Shown piece after piece: positions 47,853 to 54,365 of a stretch of 64,000 nt of DNA; the stretch's first letter is position 1; each line of letters begins with the position of its first letter. Below the pieces are notes generated by a model. That model searched no databases and had not been told where the DNA came from. It was given only the letters and a program-made list of their open reading frames with translations. Source of the DNA: Candidatus Bathyarchaeota archaeon (GTDB taxonomy: Archaea > Thermoproteota > Bathyarchaeia > Bathyarchaeales > Bathycorpusculaceae); NCBI GenBank assembly GCA_963827165.1, contig CAWGZR010000010.1, positions 71,394 to 135,393 of the forward strand, read 5' to 3'. A program made the translations under genes and the position numbers.

Positions 47853-48649
47853 CTACCGGTTTCTTTCGCTTCGAACGAAAAGGAAAGTTCCAACTGCAAA
47901 GAACGCTATCGAAAAGATTGTGATTATTGCTAAGTCGGCTATGGGGCTGTATAGAACTATGTGGCTGTAAGCTGGTGTTCCTTGATATACCTAGTCCTCT
48001 GAGCAAATCTACCTAGATAGGTCATGGGCATGGCATGAGCTAAAACGCCTAAAACCCCGGTTGAATCTTTTATAGGGATAATTGCACCCGAGAGAAACAT
48101 CTGAGCAAACGCAATCATTATCACTCCTTTATCCGCCGTCTTTGGACTGCTACTAAATATCCTAGCTATCAAAGCGCCTAATGAGCCACCTGCTACACAG
48201 ATAATGGGCGCCAACAGAAGAATCCATCCAATCGTTGACAACCCCACGGATATGCCCATAACTAAAGCCACAATAACAAAGGCAAATAGTTGTAGTATGC
48301 TTGTTATGGTGCCTCCTACGATTTTGCCCAAGATGATGGAGTAGCGAGAGATTGGCGCGACAAAGATTTCCTGTGTGAAGTCATTTTCGCGGTCTTCAAC
48401 TAAAGATGTAACGCTCATCATCGTGTTCATGACAAGCGTGTTTGCAACCATCCCTATGAGTGCAAACTGCAAATAGTTATAGCCCAAGCCGCTGCTAAGG
48501 TTTTGTGCAATGCTGCCGCCCAAAATGCCTAGGAAAAGCACGGGCATCATAAGGCTAAAAGCAAGCGAGGTTTTCCAGTCTTTGAAGAAACGGGCTATCT
48601 CCCGGGCACCAATGACTGCAATCGCGTTGAATTCTTTTTGAAATGACAT
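47853..48649 (-). CDS. ABC-2 exporter permease; C-terminus shifted by two apparent +1 G insertions
   Basis: ABC-2 motifs (EIFVAPISRYSIILGK, FLSGAIIP, MPMTY). Removing one base at each CCTAG (48012-48016 and 47990-47994) restores LVDLLRGLVYQGTPAY...GTFLFVRSERNR*. Confidence 0.8.
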
Positions 48650-49629
48650 TACTGAGCCATCTTCCCATTTTTGTCGCCTACTAAATCCATGTAGGCTTCC
48701 TCTAAGGATGGTGTATGAATCTCCATCAAGATCAGGGGCGTCTTGATTTGGCTTAGAATTTGCTGGGGGGTCTGCTGTGCAAAGCTTATTTTGAACTTGC
48801 CGTCTTCAGTGGTTTCTGGCTTAAAAGACTCAAGTTGCGAGCGTAATTCACTGCGGTTATCAGCATCTAGGAGCACATATTTTTCAAGCAGGCGATTTTT
48901 CATCTCCGTTGGCGTACCCAGAAAAACAATTTGACCGTGATTGACGATGCATATTCGGTCGGCATTTTCGGCTTCTTCGATGTAGTGTGTTGTTAGGAAT
49001 ATTGTAGTTTTTTGGATTTTGCTTACTTTTCTCAAATAAATCCATAGGTCTCTACGGGAAACAGCATCTAATCCCTGGCTTGGTTCATCTAAGAACAACA
49101 CTTTGGGTTTATGCATTAACCCCCGAATGATTTCCAATTTACGCTTCATTCCACCTGAGAAAGTTTTAAGGGGCTTGAACAAGTCTTCCCGAATGCCCAT
49201 ATATTCGGCCATCTCCAGGACTTGACTTTGATATTCCTGAGGCATGAGCCGAAAGAGAGGTTTGTATGTATAGACGCCGTAAAGGTTCACGTGTAAACGG
49301 ATATTTTCTTCAGCAGATAGATAGAGATCTAAACTTGGATTTTGGAAAATAATGCCTACGTTCTGACGGACTTCTTTTGCTTGAGAGTTTATATCGTAGC
49401 TGGCGATTGTTACGTTTCCGCTTGTTTTTGCCAGTGTTGTAGTTAAGATTGATATTGTGGTTGTTTTTCCCGCTCCGTTGGGACCGAGGAACGCAAAGAA
49501 TTCGCCGGGTTGTACATCGAAGCTGATGCCGTTCACGGCTGGTTTTTCTGATTTGCTGTATCGTTTGGTTAGGTTTTTGACTTGTATGATTGGTTGCATT
49601 TTGTTTTCGCCCATTTTGTTTAGCACCAA
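48649..49629 (-). CDS. ABC exporter ATPase, DrrA-like
   Basis: GPNGAGKTT, FSGGMKRKLEI, FLDEPSQGLD, TTHYIEEAE. Confidence 0.93.
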   Translation of the reverse strand: MVLNKMGENKMQPIIQVKNLTKRYSKSEKPAVNGISFDVQPGEFFAFLGPNGAGKTTTISILTTTLAKTSGNVTIASYDINSQAKEVRQNVGIIFQNPSLDLYLSAEENIRLHVNLYGVYTYKPLFRLMPQEYQSQVLEMAEYMGIREDLFKPLKTFSGGMKRKLEIIRGLMHKPKVLFLDEPSQGLDAVSRRDLWIYLRKVSKIQKTTIFLTTHYIEEAENADRICIVNHGQIVFLGTPTEMKNRLLEKYVLLDADNRSELRSQLESFKPETTEDGKFKISFAQQTPQQILSQIKTPLILMEIHTPSLEEAYMDLVGDKNGKMAQ

Positions 49630-49726: not shown

Positions 49727-50392
49727 ATGAAACCCAAAAAGACAAAAACGACAGGCATACAGCCTGAAGCCGTAATAAAAGCAGCTTTGGAAATATTAGA
49801 TGCTGAAGGCTTAGACAACGTAACCCTAAGACGCATAGCAGCAAAACTAAACGTACAAGCGCCCGCTCTGTATTGGCATTTCAAAAACAAACAAGATATT
49901 ACAGAAGACATGGCCCAAACCATCCTCACAAACGCAAAACTCGACAAATTTACCCCACCAGCCGACATCAACAATTGGCCTCAATGGCTAGCGGACTTAA
50001 TGCATTGCCTACGTAACGCGCTAATTGCTCACAGAGACGGCGGTCGCGTTGTTGCGGGAGCATCGTTTGGTCGCGCTTACGCTTTAGAAAAAATGTTAGC
50101 TCAAATTGCCAGGGTTTTAAACGAAGCTGGGTTTGACAGCTTTCCTGCAGGTCTAGCTGCCGCCACAACAATCGATTACGTTTGGGGCTTCGTAATTGAA
50201 GAGCAAGCGGGTCCTGAACCCGAAACACTTAGAGCGTACTTAGCCAACCCATCCACCAGGACTAATTCAGAAGACGACACATTCCTAAGCGCCTTTATGA
50301 ACGAATACCGCAAAATAACTCCCACAGAAACCTTTGACTGGGGCTTACAAGTAATAATAACTGGGCTAAAATCCGCCCTAACCAAACCCTAA
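49727..50392 (+). CDS. TetR-family repressor, TetR_C type
   Basis: AALEILDAEGLDNVTLRRIAAKLNVQAPALYWHFKNK; HRDGGRVV; FDWGL. Confidence 0.93.
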   Translation: MKPKKTKTTGIQPEAVIKAALEILDAEGLDNVTLRRIAAKLNVQAPALYWHFKNKQDITEDMAQTILTNAKLDKFTPPADINNWPQWLADLMHCLRNALIAHRDGGRVVAGASFGRAYALEKMLAQIARVLNEAGFDSFPAGLAAATTIDYVWGFVIEEQAGPEPETLRAYLANPSTRTNSEDDTFLSAFMNEYRKITPTETFDWGLQVIITGLKSALTKP

Positions 50393-50444
50393 ACTTTTCG
50401 GAAAGCTAAAAATAAAGCAGTATACACTGATTATTTCTTGTAGG

Positions 50445-50550
50445 GTAATCTGGGGAGCTGGGAAATTGACCTGGCTGAGAGGACGGCTATGTGCTGTCGA
50501 CCCTTAGAACCTGAACCAGATAATGCTGGCGGAGGGAAAAAAGTGGATCC
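50445..50550 (+). ncRNA. TPP riboswitch (THI element)
   Basis: GGGGAGC...GGCTGAGAG...ACCCTTAGAACCTGAACCAGATAATGCTGGCGGAGGGA matches the TPP aptamer core (CUGAGA, ACCUGA, AUAAUGC..GCG.AGGGA); upstream of thiamine genes. Confidence 0.92.
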
Positions 50551-51088
50551 AAACATACTAAGTATAACTAATGACCAACCAATTTCTCAGACAAAACGGG
50601 TAGCGTTAACAGGAGTTATGGCGGCTTTAATCGCGGTGACCACCATAGTTGCCATACCTTTGCCGCCGCCGCTTTCAACAATCAATTTGGCACCGGTAAT
50701 AATATTCACGGTTTGCATACTTCTCGGACCATGGGTAGGATTAACCTGTACAGTGATCGGGTGCGGCATCGGATACTTGGCGGGAACGAGCCTGGGAACA
50801 ATAATTGTTCCACCCGGTTTTCTCTATATTTACTTGGTTGGGTTGGTGGCTGCACGCGGTCCCATGGCGTTAGCTGTCGGTGGCCTACGAAAGAAGAGCG
50901 AAGTTGCAGGCATGGTTCTGGGCGTTGTTATTGAAACGGCGGTTTTCTTTTCTATTGATTTCGTGCTGTTCGGAATAGGCTTCGCTGTCTTTGATTTGGG
51001 AACGTTTGTTGACTTAGTGTTCGTACCCATCACCGTGGCGGTGCTTATTGCGGTTAGAAGGATTTTAGACACAAAGTACCTAAATTAG
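50543..51088 (+). CDS. ECF S component, probably for thiamine or a precursor
   Basis: RVALTGVMAALIAVTT, INLAPVIIF...LLGPWVG; GTG at 50543 lies 6 nt after GGAGGG. The ORF-track start lies inside the riboswitch. Confidence 0.75.
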   Translation: MDPNILSITNDQPISQTKRVALTGVMAALIAVTTIVAIPLPPPLSTINLAPVIIFTVCILLGPWVGLTCTVIGCGIGYLAGTSLGTIIVPPGFLYIYLVGLVAARGPMALAVGGLRKKSEVAGMVLGVVIETAVFFSIDFVLFGIGFAVFDLGTFVDLVFVPITVAVLIAVRRILDTKYLN

Positions 51089-51098
51089 ATGACGAGAA

Positions 51099-51779
51099 AT
51101 GGGCAGTCATACACGTTTTGAGAAGGAACGAACCGCAAAAGACTACGAAGCGTACTACGAAACCAAATACAAAAAAGCAGACGTGCTTGAGAAGAAACTG
51201 ATAACCCAGCTTTTTGCGCAATTTCCCAACGCAAAAAATGTTTTAGAAGTAGGCTGCGGAACTGGACACTTCACAGGATGGCTGAAATCTTCCATAGCCC
51301 TAGAAGCTGTCGGAGTTGACACCTCGTGGGCTATGCTAAGAGAGGCCAAAAGCTTTTTGCCCCAAATAGCCTTAGCTCAGGGGGAAGGTAGCCGTTTGCC
51401 TTTCAAAGACAAATCGGTGGATGTTGTGTTTTTTATGACTAGCCTGGAGTTTATTTCAGATGCTGTTGGAGCGCTCAAGGAAGCTGCAAGAGTGGCGAGA
51501 GTTGGAATAAATCTGGGTCTCATGAACAAAAATAGCCTTAGCACCCTGAAAAAAAGACTAAAAGCTGCAACATTAAACGACTCATTCTACAAGCAGGCAA
51601 GGTTTTATTCCCTTTCAGACATAAAAACAATAATGGAAAAAATTCTTCCCGAAGAGCACGAAATTGTTTTTTGCAGTACGACTGTTTTTTCCAAGCCATT
51701 CAGCAGCAAAGAGTCATCGGTTTTCCCTTTTGGGGGGCTTCTTGGAATAGCAGTTAGATTGGAGGGGTTTGATGAGTAA
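51099..51779 (+). CDS. Class I SAM-dependent methyltransferase
   Basis: VLEVGCGTGHF, GVDTSWAML, LPFKDKSVDVV, SLEF. Confidence 0.9.
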   Translation: MGSHTRFEKERTAKDYEAYYETKYKKADVLEKKLITQLFAQFPNAKNVLEVGCGTGHFTGWLKSSIALEAVGVDTSWAMLREAKSFLPQIALAQGEGSRLPFKDKSVDVVFFMTSLEFISDAVGALKEAARVARVGINLGLMNKNSLSTLKKRLKAATLNDSFYKQARFYSLSDIKTIMEKILPEEHEIVFCSTTVFSKPFSSKESSVFPFGGLLGIAVRLEGFDE

Positions 51780-52824
51780 AACTGGAAAGTTTTCTTATGA
51801 CTTAATTGAAAGGCTCGTTTACCCTAAACTTGGTGCAGACCGAGCTGAGGTGCTTGTAGGTCCAGGCGCGGGGCATGATAACGCAGTCGTCAAGTTGAAA
51901 GGTGGTCAAGTTCTAGTGGCAACCGCGGACCCCCTCTCAGTTATACCCGCTTTGGGAGTAAAGAACTCAGCGTATATCTCGTTTCATTTACTTGCTTCAG
52001 ACTTAGCGACCTGTGGTTTTTCTCCCGAATTTTTTATGGTTAATCTTAATTTGCCTCCTGAAATGAGCGATGAAGATTTCGATACGTATTGGAGCACCAT
52101 AGATGAAGAATGTAGAAAGCTCAACGTCGCGATTGTCGGTGGGCACACGGGCAGATACCCTGGATCAGGATACACCGTTGTCGGCGGCGGAGTCATGATG
52201 ACAATTGCGCCGGAAAACCAGTACTTAGCGACAACGATGGCCAAACCCGGTGACCTTATAATGATGACCAAAGGAGTTGCGATAGCAACAACCGGGATAC
52301 TTTCAAGGGTCTTTTCCGAAACAGTTGAGAAAAATTACGGATCCTCTTTTCTGAAGAAGGCTAAGCACTACCTTTATGATTTTAGCGTGGTTGAAGACGC
52401 GTTGATTGCGGCGTCCATAGGCTTGAGGGACGAAGGGGTTACCTCGATGCATGATGTTACTGAAGGAGGGTTGCTAGGAGCATTATACGAGCTTTCCGAA
52501 GCGTCAAACACGGGTTTAGAAGTTGATCTTTCCAAAGTGATTATCACTGATGAAGCCGCCAAAATTTGTGAACTTTTCAAGATATCCCCTTACCACACCT
52601 TAAGTGAGGGAACCCTAATCTTGACAGTCAAACCCGAAATGGCTTCAGCTGTTCAGCAAGTCCTAGATTTGAAAGGAATAAAAAACGCGGTGATAGGAAA
52701 AATTGTCGATGCAAAAAATGGCAAGTGGACCAAAAACGCAGACAGAAGCGAGATTCTGGGCAAACCTGAGGCTGACCCGTATTGGGAAGCTTATTCTATG
52801 GCAATTAGAGAGGGGTGGAAATGA
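51769..52824 (+). CDS. AIR synthase (PurM/ThiL/HypE)-family protein
   Basis: GHDNAV, ADP, SDLA, VGGHTG, GDLIMMTK, MHDVTEGGLLGAL. Confidence 0.82.
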   Translation: MMSKTGKFSYDLIERLVYPKLGADRAEVLVGPGAGHDNAVVKLKGGQVLVATADPLSVIPALGVKNSAYISFHLLASDLATCGFSPEFFMVNLNLPPEMSDEDFDTYWSTIDEECRKLNVAIVGGHTGRYPGSGYTVVGGGVMMTIAPENQYLATTMAKPGDLIMMTKGVAIATTGILSRVFSETVEKNYGSSFLKKAKHYLYDFSVVEDALIAASIGLRDEGVTSMHDVTEGGLLGALYELSEASNTGLEVDLSKVIITDEAAKICELFKISPYHTLSEGTLILTVKPEMASAVQQVLDLKGIKNAVIGKIVDAKNGKWTKNADRSEILGKPEADPYWEAYSMAIREGWK

Positions 52825-53462
52825 AAGGTTACCCTAAGCTTGGGGGTTTGTATCTTGTCGTTTCACCGATTTTGCCTGACGAGCAACTGCTTTTTGCAAC
52901 GGAGATGGCTCTTGATGGAGATGTAGATCTTCTTCAGCTTTCAGCAGGCAAAGAAACGCCGGGTCTGCACGTTTTGGGAACCAAGCTTGTAGACATGGCG
53001 AGGGAGCATGGGATCCCATTTCTAGTTAACAACAGCTTGGAGTTGGCTAAAGAGGTTAGCGCTGATGGGGTGCACTTAGATGCTTTTGATGTAACCCCAA
53101 CAGAAGCCAGACGCCTTCTCGACAGTGAAGCCATAGTAGGTTATACAGTGAACGTTGATTTGGAAAAAATCAAATGGGCAGAAGATGCAGGTGCAGATTA
53201 CGTTTCGTTTTGTTCAATTTTTCATCAATGCCCTGGCAATCAATGCCCAATAGTGCCTTTAGATACCGTTAAAAACGCGGCATCCGCTACAAACCTTCCG
53301 ATTTTTGCAGCCGGAGGAATAAATTTAGAAAACATTCTGTTGGTTCTGGAAGCAGGAGTGGAAGGAGTCGCAGTCACCTCAGCCATTCTTAAGTCAAAGG
53401 ATCCGCGGAAAACCGCGAGAGAATTTAAACAAATGATTAGCAAATATGGGAAGAAAAGGTAG
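52815..53462 (+). CDS. thiE: Thiamine-phosphate synthase, ThiE type
   Basis: LYLV, FLVNN..ELA....ADGVHL, IVGYT, GADYV, IFAAGGIN.EN, GVAVTSAIL. Confidence 0.8.
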   Translation: MEMKGYPKLGGLYLVVSPILPDEQLLFATEMALDGDVDLLQLSAGKETPGLHVLGTKLVDMAREHGIPFLVNNSLELAKEVSADGVHLDAFDVTPTEARRLLDSEAIVGYTVNVDLEKIKWAEDAGADYVSFCSIFHQCPGNQCPIVPLDTVKNAASATNLPIFAAGGINLENILLVLEAGVEGVAVTSAILKSKDPRKTAREFKQMISKYGKKR

Positions 53463-53486: not shown

Positions 53487-54365
53487 TTATTTTTTGAGTT
53501 CTGATAAGACAAAGTTCACGATTTCTTCGGCGATGTTAACTTTGGCAACGACTTGGAGCCCTTTCCACCCTGGCTGGCTGTTAACATCTACAATTCTCGG
53601 TCCCTGAGGTCCTTCAAGGATGTCCACTCCCGCAATTTTGCATCCCACTGCCTTGGCGGATTTAATCGCTAATTCCTCGAATTCTTTGCTGATTGTAGCG
53701 GGTGCGGGTTTGGCGCCTCGGCTATAGTTGGTTTTCCATCCTTCCGCGACACGACGCATGGATGAGACCACTCGATCACCGATCACAAAAGCGCGAATGT
53801 CTGAGTGTCCATGGGGTACGAATTCCTGCATGTAGATAACGCCGTGGTGGAAGGTGATGGCTTTGAAGATTGTGTCAGCGATGTCTACGTCGTTTACTCT
53901 TGTTGCGCCTTGTCCGCGTGAGCCGAAAATGGGTTTAACAACTATGTCGCCGCCTAACTCATCGAAGGCTTTGAGAGCTTCGTTGACGCTTTCAGTTGCT
54001 AAGGTACGGGGTACGGGAACGCCGATGTCTTCCAAAAGCGCCAATATGTCATATTTGTCTACACAGTGCTCAATAGCTGTGGGCGGGTTCACCATGTAGA
54101 AGCCTTGGCGTTCAAGCTTGTAGAGCATGTCCATTCGGAAAACCAATTCCTCAAGAGAACCGCGTCCAATTGGGCGGATGATGAGGGCGTCCAAGTCGTC
54201 CAGTAGGCTGATGTCGTTGACTTTGAAGCAGGGTTTGTAGGCGAGTCTTGCGACGAGTCGTGGAAAAGTGAAGCATTCGTATGGGATGCTCCTTTTGGTT
54301 AATGCTTCCCGGACTTGGGTGCTGCTCCATGCTTCGGGGTTACGGGTCATTATTCCAAATCTCAA
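53487..54365 (-). CDS. RimK-family ATP-grasp L-glutamate ligase (MptN-like)
   Basis: DKY, VPVPRT, IVVKPIFGSRG.G, QEFV...SDIRAFVIG, WKTNYSRG, DVNSQPG. Confidence 0.88.
   Translation of the reverse strand: MRFGIMTRNPEAWSSTQVREALTKRSIPYECFTFPRLVARLAYKPCFKVNDISLLDDLDALIIRPIGRGSLEELVFRMDMLYKLERQGFYMVNPPTAIEHCVDKYDILALLEDIGVPVPRTLATESVNEALKAFDELGGDIVVKPIFGSRGQGATRVNDVDIADTIFKAITFHHGVIYMQEFVPHGHSDIRAFVIGDRVVSSMRRVAEGWKTNYSRGAKPAPATISKEFEELAIKSAKAVGCKIAGVDILEGPQGPRIVDVNSQPGWKGLQVVAKVNIAEEIVNFVLSELKK

Follow-up and report, generated by a model that had tools for sequence, protein, structure and literature searches.

In this study, we analyzed a 64,000-nucleotide stretch of Candidatus Bathyarchaeota archaeon (assembly GCA_963827165.1, contig CAWGZR010000010.1, positions 71,394 to 135,393 of the forward strand; hereafter the window, and its genome G000), which contains a four-gene operon behind a riboswitch for thiamine pyrophosphate (TPP). 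The genes encode an energy-coupling factor (ECF)-type S component, a class I S-adenosylmethionine (SAM)-dependent methyltransferase (hereafter MT), a PurM/ThiL-superfamily protein (hereafter X) and a ThiE homologue; the gene order MT>X>ThiE is referred to as the triad. The operon is a genuine salvage module, conserved and under riboswitch control; three of its enzymes lack an assigned function, and no description of the module was found in the literature searched, which did not cover subscription journals. We interpret it as a salvage operon that TPP represses in a soil bathyarchaeon auxotrophic for thiamine; thiamine monophosphate (TMP) would be made without ThiC, ThiD, ThiM or TenA by the steps proposed below, and we assign this reading a probability of about 0.4. 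Support is good for the more general reading, a ThiD-independent TMP route in auxotrophs; the chemistry proposed in detail is hypothetical. The anatomy of the operon, its co-conservation, the gene losses of its carriers and a residue switch in ThiE are established, and the co-variation of MT with a ThiE subtype, the link to Trm112, the transporter pairings and the gene-loss pattern are new here.

Organization of the operon

The order riboswitch, S component, MT, X and ThiE, joined by a 10-nt gap and overlaps, had been proposed in the original prediction and was verified by Rfam, domain and ORF analysis (Table 1). The gap of 10 nts separates the S component gene from MT, while MT overlaps X by 11 nts and X overlaps the ThiE gene by 10 nts. 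The aptamer is the sole TPP riboswitch of G000 (the whole genome was searched; the 3.13 Mb assembly is 94.5% complete). Its conserved 3' part contains a GGAGGG ribosome-binding site 6 nts upstream of the GTG codon at 50543, which suggests translational control of the first gene, with the 3' part of the aptamer doubling as ribosome-binding site. An in-frame ATG at 50489 falls within the aptamer (the ORF read from there matches PF07155 with 38.6 bits), and GTG 50543 is the most plausible start of the S component, whose substrate is probably thiamine or a close relative. The T-run TTATTTTTTG behind the ThiE gene is likely to be an archaeal terminator. When the window proteins were scanned, no curated NCBIfam equivalog claimed MT, X or the ThiE homologue.

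Table 1. Features of the thiamine operon and of the adjoining genes, in positions of the window
Feature	Position	Strand	Evidence or remark
TPP riboswitch aptamer (RF00059)	50441-50554	+	Rfam 57.7 bits (gathering 54.3), model positions 1-105, full-length
Ribosome-binding site GGAGGG	50531-50536		within the aptamer
ECF-type S component	50543-51088	+	GTG start; PF07155 39.0 bits (cut-off 26.7)
MT, class I SAM-dependent methyltransferase	51099-51779	+	Methyltransf_11 66.6 bits
X, PurM/ThiL-superfamily (AIR-synthase-family) protein	51769-52824	+	AIRS and AIRS_C domains
ThiE homologue, MT-linked subtype	52815-53462	+	PF02581 137.6 bits
T-run TTATTTTTTG, putative terminator	53488-53497		read from sequence; between convergent ends of operon and RimK-like gene
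DrrA/DrrB-like ABC-2 exporter pair	47957-49629	-	
ABC ATPase of the exporter pair	48649-49629		exporter-like
TetR-family repressor	49727-50392	+	divergent from exporter pair
RimK-family ATP-grasp ligase	53487-54365	-	convergent; best match MptN, 265 bits (below cut-off of 350)

Occurrence of the module in Bathyarchaeia

The window sequence occurs in soil metagenomes, and its named homologues belong to Bathyarchaeia. Hundreds of metagenomic proteins are 60-93% identical to X, and the order S>MT>X>ThiE was recovered on three long contigs, one of them with wholly different flanks. Among 151 species genomes of Bathyarchaeia, 12 have an X orthologue, and four of these (G000, G072, G077 and G148) have the complete four-gene operon. 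In G093 the contig ends after S>X, and seven genomes, all of family f29, contain S>X alone; in two of the seven the S slot is filled by a genuine ThiT (PF09515; 158 bits and E 1.1e-44). PF07155 is matched by 11 of 13 S component orthologues, with ThiT in the same slot at two loci. Besides the window, all 11 orthologous loci have an upstream TPP riboswitch match, 10 of them above the gathering threshold (56.5-67.7 bits) and one (L031) at 36.1 bits, and the Bathyarchaeia tested have one such riboswitch apiece.

Other thiamine genes were searched for in the same 151 genomes. ThiD, as a ThiDN fusion, is present in 71 genomes vs none of the 12 with X; ThiN is present in 82 and, among the X-bearing genomes, in G093 only. 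Full-length ThiE was found only in the four operon genomes and in one genome with a canonical thiM-thiE pair. ThiL is widespread (132 genomes, including 10 of the 12 with X).

Occurrence in other phyla

An exhaustive profile search (E<1e-30) yielded approximately 375 X-related clusters at the 50% identity level. One genome per species was then scanned, giving 80 loci whose neighbours were typed by tblastn with reference thiamine proteins. The triad was present in 38 of the 80, mostly from cultured Bacteroidota (Mucilaginibacter, Pedobacter, Chryseobacterium, Cyclobacterium, Emticicia, Gramella, Arenibacter, Rufibacter and Marivirga) and also from Kryptonia, Bipolaricaulota and Bathyarchaeota. 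ThiE>X was found at 22 loci, 21 of Actinomycetota and one of a Planctomycetaceae metagenome-assembled genome. In addition, a Thermoplasmatota locus reads riboswitch>MFS>ThiD>X>ThiE, two haloarchaea have X>ThiDN, other Thermoproteota have ThiT>X or S>X, and X adjoins ThiN or ThiL at further loci. In other archaea X directly follows APC or MFS permeases, once with a ThiN-domain (ThiR-like) gene divergently upstream.

TPP riboswitches accompany these genes beyond Bathyarchaeia. They were found upstream at loci L099, L122, L076, L100, L072 and L065. In five Bacteroidota the riboswitch is directly 5' of MT, and in Bipolaricaulota a TPP riboswitch is followed by a ThiXYZ-type ABC importer with an NMT1/THI5-like binding protein and then by the triad. 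At the Kryptonia locus (L062) no TPP riboswitch was found, the sole exception among the triad copies checked. The four-gene arrangement recurs with different flanks in other Bathyarchaeia, and the triad in 38 of the 80 loci, which is far beyond chance. The expectation that the gene set would recur under TPP riboswitches was thus borne out in other Bathyarchaeia and other phyla. Likewise, an MT neither conserved nor transcribed together with thiamine genes, which would have spoken against the original prediction, is not what we observed: MT is strictly co-conserved with them and translationally coupled, across two domains of life behind TPP riboswitches, coupling and co-transcription being read from the gene overlaps.

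Thiamine genes of the carriers

A search of the whole G000 genome with curated models detected no ThiC, ThiD, ThiM, Thi4, ThiN or thiamine pyrophosphokinase (TPK), the ThiM and Thi4 models giving weak partial matches only. It revealed one ThiE homologue and, on another contig, a true ThiL (255.5 bits; G000:C5:55023-55979). Judged by this gene content, G000 is a thiamine auxotroph. ThiD, ThiC and ThiG were not found in five triad Bacteroidota genomes, and over all triad genomes tested for each gene the counts were 0/9 for ThiD, 0/9 for ThiC, 0/5 for ThiG, 0/14 for ThiM and 0/14 for TenA, with ThiL in 14/14. A real ThiM was found in none of 20 X-bearing genomes and in none of the 12 X-bearing Bathyarchaeia, ThiL coexists with X in all of those 20, and TPK was present in only 2 of 25 genomes. 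Among the families searched, the triad module and ThiL are the only thiamine enzymes found in many carriers. The remaining TPP riboswitches in triad Bacteroidota control TonB-dependent receptors and PnuT.

Five near-complete genomes of the same genus as G000 (G038, G094, G102, G127 and G133) keep ThiL, and searches for ThiD, ThiE, ThiN and X, though not for TPK, found none of these genes. It therefore seems that there is probably another TMP route in Bathyarchaeia, such as an unrecognised thiamine kinase or uptake of TMP. In Marivirga aurantiaca (L170:383-1503), a TPP riboswitch is followed by PnuT and a 183-amino-acid AAA_28 (NadR-kinase-like) protein, which may be another candidate thiamine-trapping kinase.

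A ThiE subtype linked to the methyltransferase

The window ThiE scores 128.2 bits with TIGR00693, below the equivalog cut-off of 145.1. Its structure was modelled with a predicted local distance difference test (pLDDT) score of 91.3, and the top Foldseek matches were ThiE of Pyrococcus furiosus (1xi3) and Bacillus subtilis (2tps), with a TM score of 0.80-0.85 and 26-28% identity. We aligned 44 MT-linked and 16 non-MT-linked ThiE homologues and compared them in B. subtilis numbering (Table 2); ThiE ORFs of 10 high-GC loci, which were wrong-frame calls, were left out of the count. MT presence tracks the ThiE subtype: each of the 44 sequences of the subtype is accompanied by MT, as against none of the other 16, and at the sole locus scored as having the subtype without MT (L096) the contig ends where MT would lie.

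Table 2. Residues that distinguish MT-linked from non-MT-linked ThiE homologues
Position	Non-MT-linked	MT-linked
Arg59	Arg 16/16	Trp 40/44, Arg 0/44
Lys159	Lys 16/16	Lys 0/44
Gly two residues past His107 (His-x-Asp in subtype)	Gly 16/16	Asp 44/44
Ser130	Ser 15/16	Thr 44/44
Two before the conserved Phe	Val/Gly/Ser/Ala	Cys 44/44
Asp112	Asp 14/16	Pro 30/44
Asp93	Asp 12/16	mostly Asn or Glu

In B. subtilis ThiE, Arg59, Lys61, Lys159, Asp93 and Asp112 presumably form the Mg-diphosphate site, Gln57 would contact the pyrimidine, and Gly188, Gly189, Ile208 and Ser209 would form the thiazole-phosphate site. Lys61 is a lysine in just 4 of the 16 non-MT-linked proteins. Both groups retain Gln57, Gly188-Gly189 and Ser209 (44/44, 44/44 and 41/44, respectively, in the MT-linked one). 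The subtype shares the TIM barrel and these conserved residues with the two solved enzymes and differs from them in its replaced residues at the presumed diphosphate site and its new invariant Asp, Thr130 and Cys. On this reading of the sites, the leaving-group pocket would have gone from basic to aromatic/acidic while still under selection, with the thiazole-phosphate site kept. At the columns of Arg59, Lys61, Lys159, Asp93 and Asp112, the window ThiE carries Ser, Gly, Gly, Asn and Asp, respectively, and at those of Gln57, Gly188-Gly189, Ile208 and Ser209 it carries Q, GG, T and S.

In the triad genomes tested, the co-occurrence of MT, a rebuilt pocket and missing ThiD and TenA suggests that the pyrimidine donor of this subtype is not the diphosphate (HMP-PP) of hydroxymethylpyrimidine (HMP). 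The salvage route of the original prediction can be retained in part: the salvage role itself stands, with de novo genes missing and an importer opening the operon, but not the canonical ThiE condensation, since the subtype lacks the presumed diphosphate/Mg site. TenA and thiaminase I use cysteine catalysis at the carbon where, in the pathway proposed below, the leaving group of the pyrimidine would be exchanged, and the conserved Cys residues of the subtype are reminiscent of it.

The methyltransferase and its link to Trm112

MT contains the motif I LEVGCGTG and invariant Y16, E17, Y20, K32, W61 and D74, the last in an acidic motif II (VGVD). Its family is narrow, found only in this module and always adjoining X and the ThiE subtype, and look-ups in solved structures and the ESM Atlas returned generic methyltransferases only. 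In 33 Bacteroidota loci, a gene for a small Trm112p-like zinc-ribbon protein lies 3' of the ThiE subtype and ends the operon. G000 has a Trm112 homologue that is 36-39% identical to these proteins over approximately 80 residues. A complex model of the window MT with this homologue scored 0.89 (best control 0.00), with a partner pLDDT of 93-94 and a contact agreement of at least 98%; the mark applied is reached by 58 of 80 solved complexes and 2 of 110 mismatched pairs. The predicted contact is the MT edge strand at residues ~91-107. The model supports pairing of MT with Trm112, as a likeness and not as proof, since Trm112-methyltransferase complexes have already been solved. Trm9, Trm11, Mtq2 and Bud23, which work with Trm112, are comparable in that a small zinc-ribbon Trm112-like protein, predicted to bind MT, is encoded together with MT in Bacteroidota; they differ in that they methylate RNA or protein, whereas MT is locked into a thiamine operon.

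The Trm112 homologue of G000 lies 34 nts past a Trm5/TYW2-type tRNA methyltransferase gene (L175:2914-4086; G000:C5:546413-547585), and beyond the zinc ribbon it has a PDE-R...P....W tail common to the operon-encoded proteins of Bacteroidota. In a long-read-derived relative (L008:5329-6008), MT is split into two ORFs of 115 and 108 amino acids, which could be due to a frameshift or an assembly error. A 37%-identical MT homologue follows genes for a PF01910 'thiamine-binding protein' and a DnaJ-domain protein (L052:2928-4292), and another distant homologue adjoins a weak YkoF match; these observations hint at additional connections to thiamine in the wider family of MT.

It is conceivable that MT depends on Trm112 to methylate RNA or protein and is a mere passenger of the operon or serves in regulation, leaving X and ThiE as the only thiamine enzymes. 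All Trm112 partners known to us modify tRNA, rRNA or a release factor, the Trm112 gene of G000 adjoins a tRNA methyltransferase, and MT has no match to a small-molecule-specific family. However, a hitch-hiker would not be expected to co-vary with the active-site residues of its neighbour, as MT does (44/44 vs 0/16), and the order of the pair is kept behind TPP riboswitches from archaea to Bacteroidota. We therefore consider this explanation very unlikely.

Another function for MT is suggested by the bacimethrin (bcm) cluster of Clostridium botulinum, which is also controlled by a TPP riboswitch and combines a SAM methyltransferase with a pyrimidine kinase. MT would then O-methylate a 2-oxo pyrimidine such as 5-hydroxymethylcytosine, giving 2'-methoxy-thiamine as an antivitamin or alternative cofactor. 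The bcm cluster has genes for a CMP hydroxymethylase and a glycosidase beside the methyltransferase; neither was found in any locus examined, which leaves no gene there to make or release 5-hydroxymethylcytosine. Moreover, a toxic product would be self-defeating in auxotrophs whose thiamine genes are the module and ThiL only, and the diphosphate site needed by bacimethrin diphosphate is gone from the ThiE subtype. Such a role is barely plausible.

Proposed function of X

X resembles several PurM-type enzymes at scores below their cut-offs: 91.5 bits with the thiL model TIGR01379 (cut-off 184.15), 78 with the hypE model TIGR02124 (251.6) and 72 with selD. It was ruled out as ThiL by this score and because a true ThiL coexists with it in nearly all genomes; X shares the PurM-type two-domain fold of ThiL, and a thiamine-type ligand as well if our proposal is right, but belongs to a separate family. 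HypE, in which a C-terminal cysteine carries the cyanide precursor, was rejected by score, and the protein ends in AIREGWK without a C-terminal Cys and has no hydrogenase genes adjacent. Membership in the ribokinase-like ThiM family (PF02110) was also ruled out, as X has AIRS and AIRS_C domains only, even if it may work like ThiM. An amide-activating enzyme of the PurL/PurM type, acting on oxythiamine, formylaminopyrimidine or ring-opened thiamine, had no supporting evidence and would leave the phosphate at the ThiE site unexplained.

We propose that X is a kinase for thiamine and/or hydroxyethylthiazole (HET). In the solved structure of ThiL, the pyrimidine of bound TMP is exposed to solvent (PMC6416309). 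A paralogue could therefore bind the thiazole whether or not the pyrimidine is attached. X contains ATP-site Asp/His motifs. Five kinds of transporter precede its gene (ThiT, the PF07155-type S component, MFS, APC and ThiXYZ). In genomes with ThiT>X and ThiL and no TMP synthase, thiamine would be the only sensible substrate; beside ThiE or ThiN it would be HET, which offers the same hydroxyl. In a tree of the family, clade A contains X linked to canonical ThiE, ThiD or ThiN, and clade B unites transporter-only X with MT-linked X. The original prediction's tie between an AIR-synthase-fold protein and thiamine genes persists, but the protein belongs to a large family that is linked to TMP synthases and thiamine transporters with or without MT.

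A paralogue of X, approximately 32% identical, is encoded elsewhere in G000 (L056:3605-4612; G000:C10:229616-230602, outside the window) and occurs in 134 of the 151 Bathyarchaeia genomes. It forms a sister clade of the X family, and no thiamine neighbours were found for it.

Three X-ThiN fusion proteins, with both domain orders, have independent origins on the tree, and one of them adjoins thiC-thiL. At L057:6001-8435, the beginning of a gene for a homologue of the MnmA-type tRNA 2-thiouridine synthase is overlapped by a ThiN-X fusion gene, which places a sulfur-transfer enzyme in a thiamine context. A simple replacement of ThiD by X was attractive at first in view of the fusions and the thiC-thiL neighbourhood; it was downgraded by ThiD>X>ThiE, X>ThiDN and transporter>X without TMP synthase, and the operons that contain both X and ThiD show that X does not simply stand in for ThiD. 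In a fuller version, X would be a ThiL-like kinase of HMP phosphate (HMP-P) or of HMP, ThiE would use HMP-PP in its rearranged pocket, and MT would tailor the pyrimidine beforehand. The fusions mirror archaeal ThiD-ThiN, ThiD function looks missing beside thiC-thiL, ThiD was not found in the 12 X-bearing Bathyarchaeia or in the five Bacteroidota tested, and the ThiL chemistry (phosphate to diphosphate) matches the conversion of HMP-P to HMP-PP. Nevertheless, the shared operon in Thermoplasmatota and the X>ThiDN pairs of haloarchaea speak against it, as do f29 and other archaea, which pair X with a transporter alone and have no TMP synthase, and an MT-linked ThiE without Arg59 and Lys159 and mostly without acidic residues at 93 and 112 is a poor fit for HMP-PP. 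We consider this version quite unlikely.

Proposed pathway

In the pathway that we favour, low TPP would let the aptamer free the ribosome-binding site, and the S component would import thiamine or related compounds. X, as a ThiL paralogue, would transfer phosphate from ATP to the 2-hydroxyethyl group on the thiazole ring, trapping thiamine as TMP and/or HET to thiazole phosphate. MT with Trm112 would methylate a salvaged pyrimidine, our best guess being the amine of 4-amino-5-aminomethyl-2-methylpyrimidine or a similar HMP-amine adduct. The methylated amine would stand in for diphosphate as a cationic leaving group, analogous to the C-N+ bond of thiamine, and the altered ThiE, with Trp, Asp, Thr and Cys in its pocket, would join this donor and thiazole phosphate in a reaction driven by SAM instead of ATP. 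The separately encoded ThiL would then complete TPP. The link to a pyrimidine comes from the Bipolaricaulota locus, whose ThiXYZ-type importer is the only importer of a known type attached to a triad; ThiXYZ carries formylaminopyrimidine or HMP-type compounds. That the imported or methylated compound is a thiamine analogue or a degradation product, as the original prediction supposed, is a hypothesis. The most far-reaching version, in which methylation replaces diphosphorylation for pyrimidine activation, a charge-reversed ThiE displaces the methylated amine, the ThiL-like kinase supplies thiazole phosphate and MT is the first small-molecule Trm112-dependent methyltransferase (we know of no other), is doubtful.

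Several points weigh against the pathway. We infer all of its substrates and both of its chemical steps, the gene absences come from hidden Markov model searches of draft genomes, and the roles of the ThiE residues are those given for the B. subtilis enzyme in the structural literature. All Trm112-dependent methyltransferases known to us act on RNA or protein and not on small molecules. The window ThiE itself has Ser in place of the Trp of the subtype and Val at one subtype Cys position. The f29 genomes, with S or ThiT before X and no TMP synthase, fit thiamine only, making HET kinase activity an extrapolation, and a kinase of HMP-P would agree equally with the fusions to ThiN and with the neighbourhood of thiC-thiL. 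Finally, the probable TMP route without X in genomes of the same genus weakens the case for X as a necessary thiamine kinase.

Alternatively, X may simply be a thiamine kinase that traps imports, with MT and the altered ThiE converting or neutralising phosphorylated thiamine that is damaged or an analogue, and no coupling taking place. This would agree with the position of MT-linked X in clade B beside transporter-only X, with an S component interchangeable with ThiT, and with the TonB receptors and PnuT under the other riboswitches of triad Bacteroidota, which we take as thiamine-type uptake. The ThiE subtype keeps its presumed thiazole-phosphate and pyrimidine sites, as a TMP-like ligand needs, and apart from X no thiazole phosphate source is known in triad genomes. 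On the other hand, no natural thiamine analogue is known to us that methyl transfer would repair, and the new invariant residues cluster in the presumed former leaving-group pocket, pointing to chemistry at the bridging methylene. Moreover, the triad of Bipolaricaulota sits with the pyrimidine-type ThiXYZ, while a separate riboswitch there belongs to a gene for a ThiB-like binding protein that probably serves thiamine uptake. Repair without coupling is therefore unlikely.

Comparison with known salvage systems

The favoured pathway resembles the bacterial thiM-thiD-thiE and thiW-thiM-thiE operons, whose users scavenge thiamine fragments, in its order of riboswitch, importer, kinase(s) and TMP synthase, and in the Thermoplasmatota operon X sits where ThiM would. 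It differs in having a PurM-superfamily enzyme and a SAM methyltransferase in the place of ThiM and ThiD, and a rebuilt synthase pocket. Salvage of base-degraded thiamine (formylaminopyrimidine) by ThiXYZ, YlmB, TenA and ThiD is similar in scavenging the pyrimidine half, and one triad is directly behind a ThiXYZ-type importer; here, however, TenA (0/14) and ThiD (0/9) were not found in triad genomes, and activation would be by methylation instead of hydrolysis and diphosphorylation.

In soils, sediments and oceans, thiamine and the pieces of it are exchanged as nutrients, and genome-based calls of auxotrophy need all salvage routes. Solving the module would supply the ThiM, ThiK and ThiD functions that are missing from these lineages, reveal the role of a ThiE with a rebuilt leaving-group pocket and alter the scoring of vitamin B1 dependence in metagenomes, and it might extend Trm112 beyond RNA and protein methylation. 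If activation by methylation is true, many Bacteroidota and archaea scored as auxotrophs could live on thiamine breakdown products. The carriers include cultured and tractable Mucilaginibacter, Pedobacter, Chryseobacterium, Cyclobacterium and Gramella.

Neighbouring genes in the window

Directly upstream of the riboswitch lies the gene of a TetR-family repressor, divergent from the exporter genes, in which the ABC ATPase pairs with an ABC-2 permease and the TetR regulator (Table 1). The repressor and the exporter pair look like a unit separate from the thiamine operon. On the other side, the convergent RimK-family gene has its best match to MptN (tetrahydromethanopterin:alpha-L-glutamate ligase). 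It adjoins the operon in close relatives (L008 and L010) but not in L012, and is therefore probably unrelated to it.

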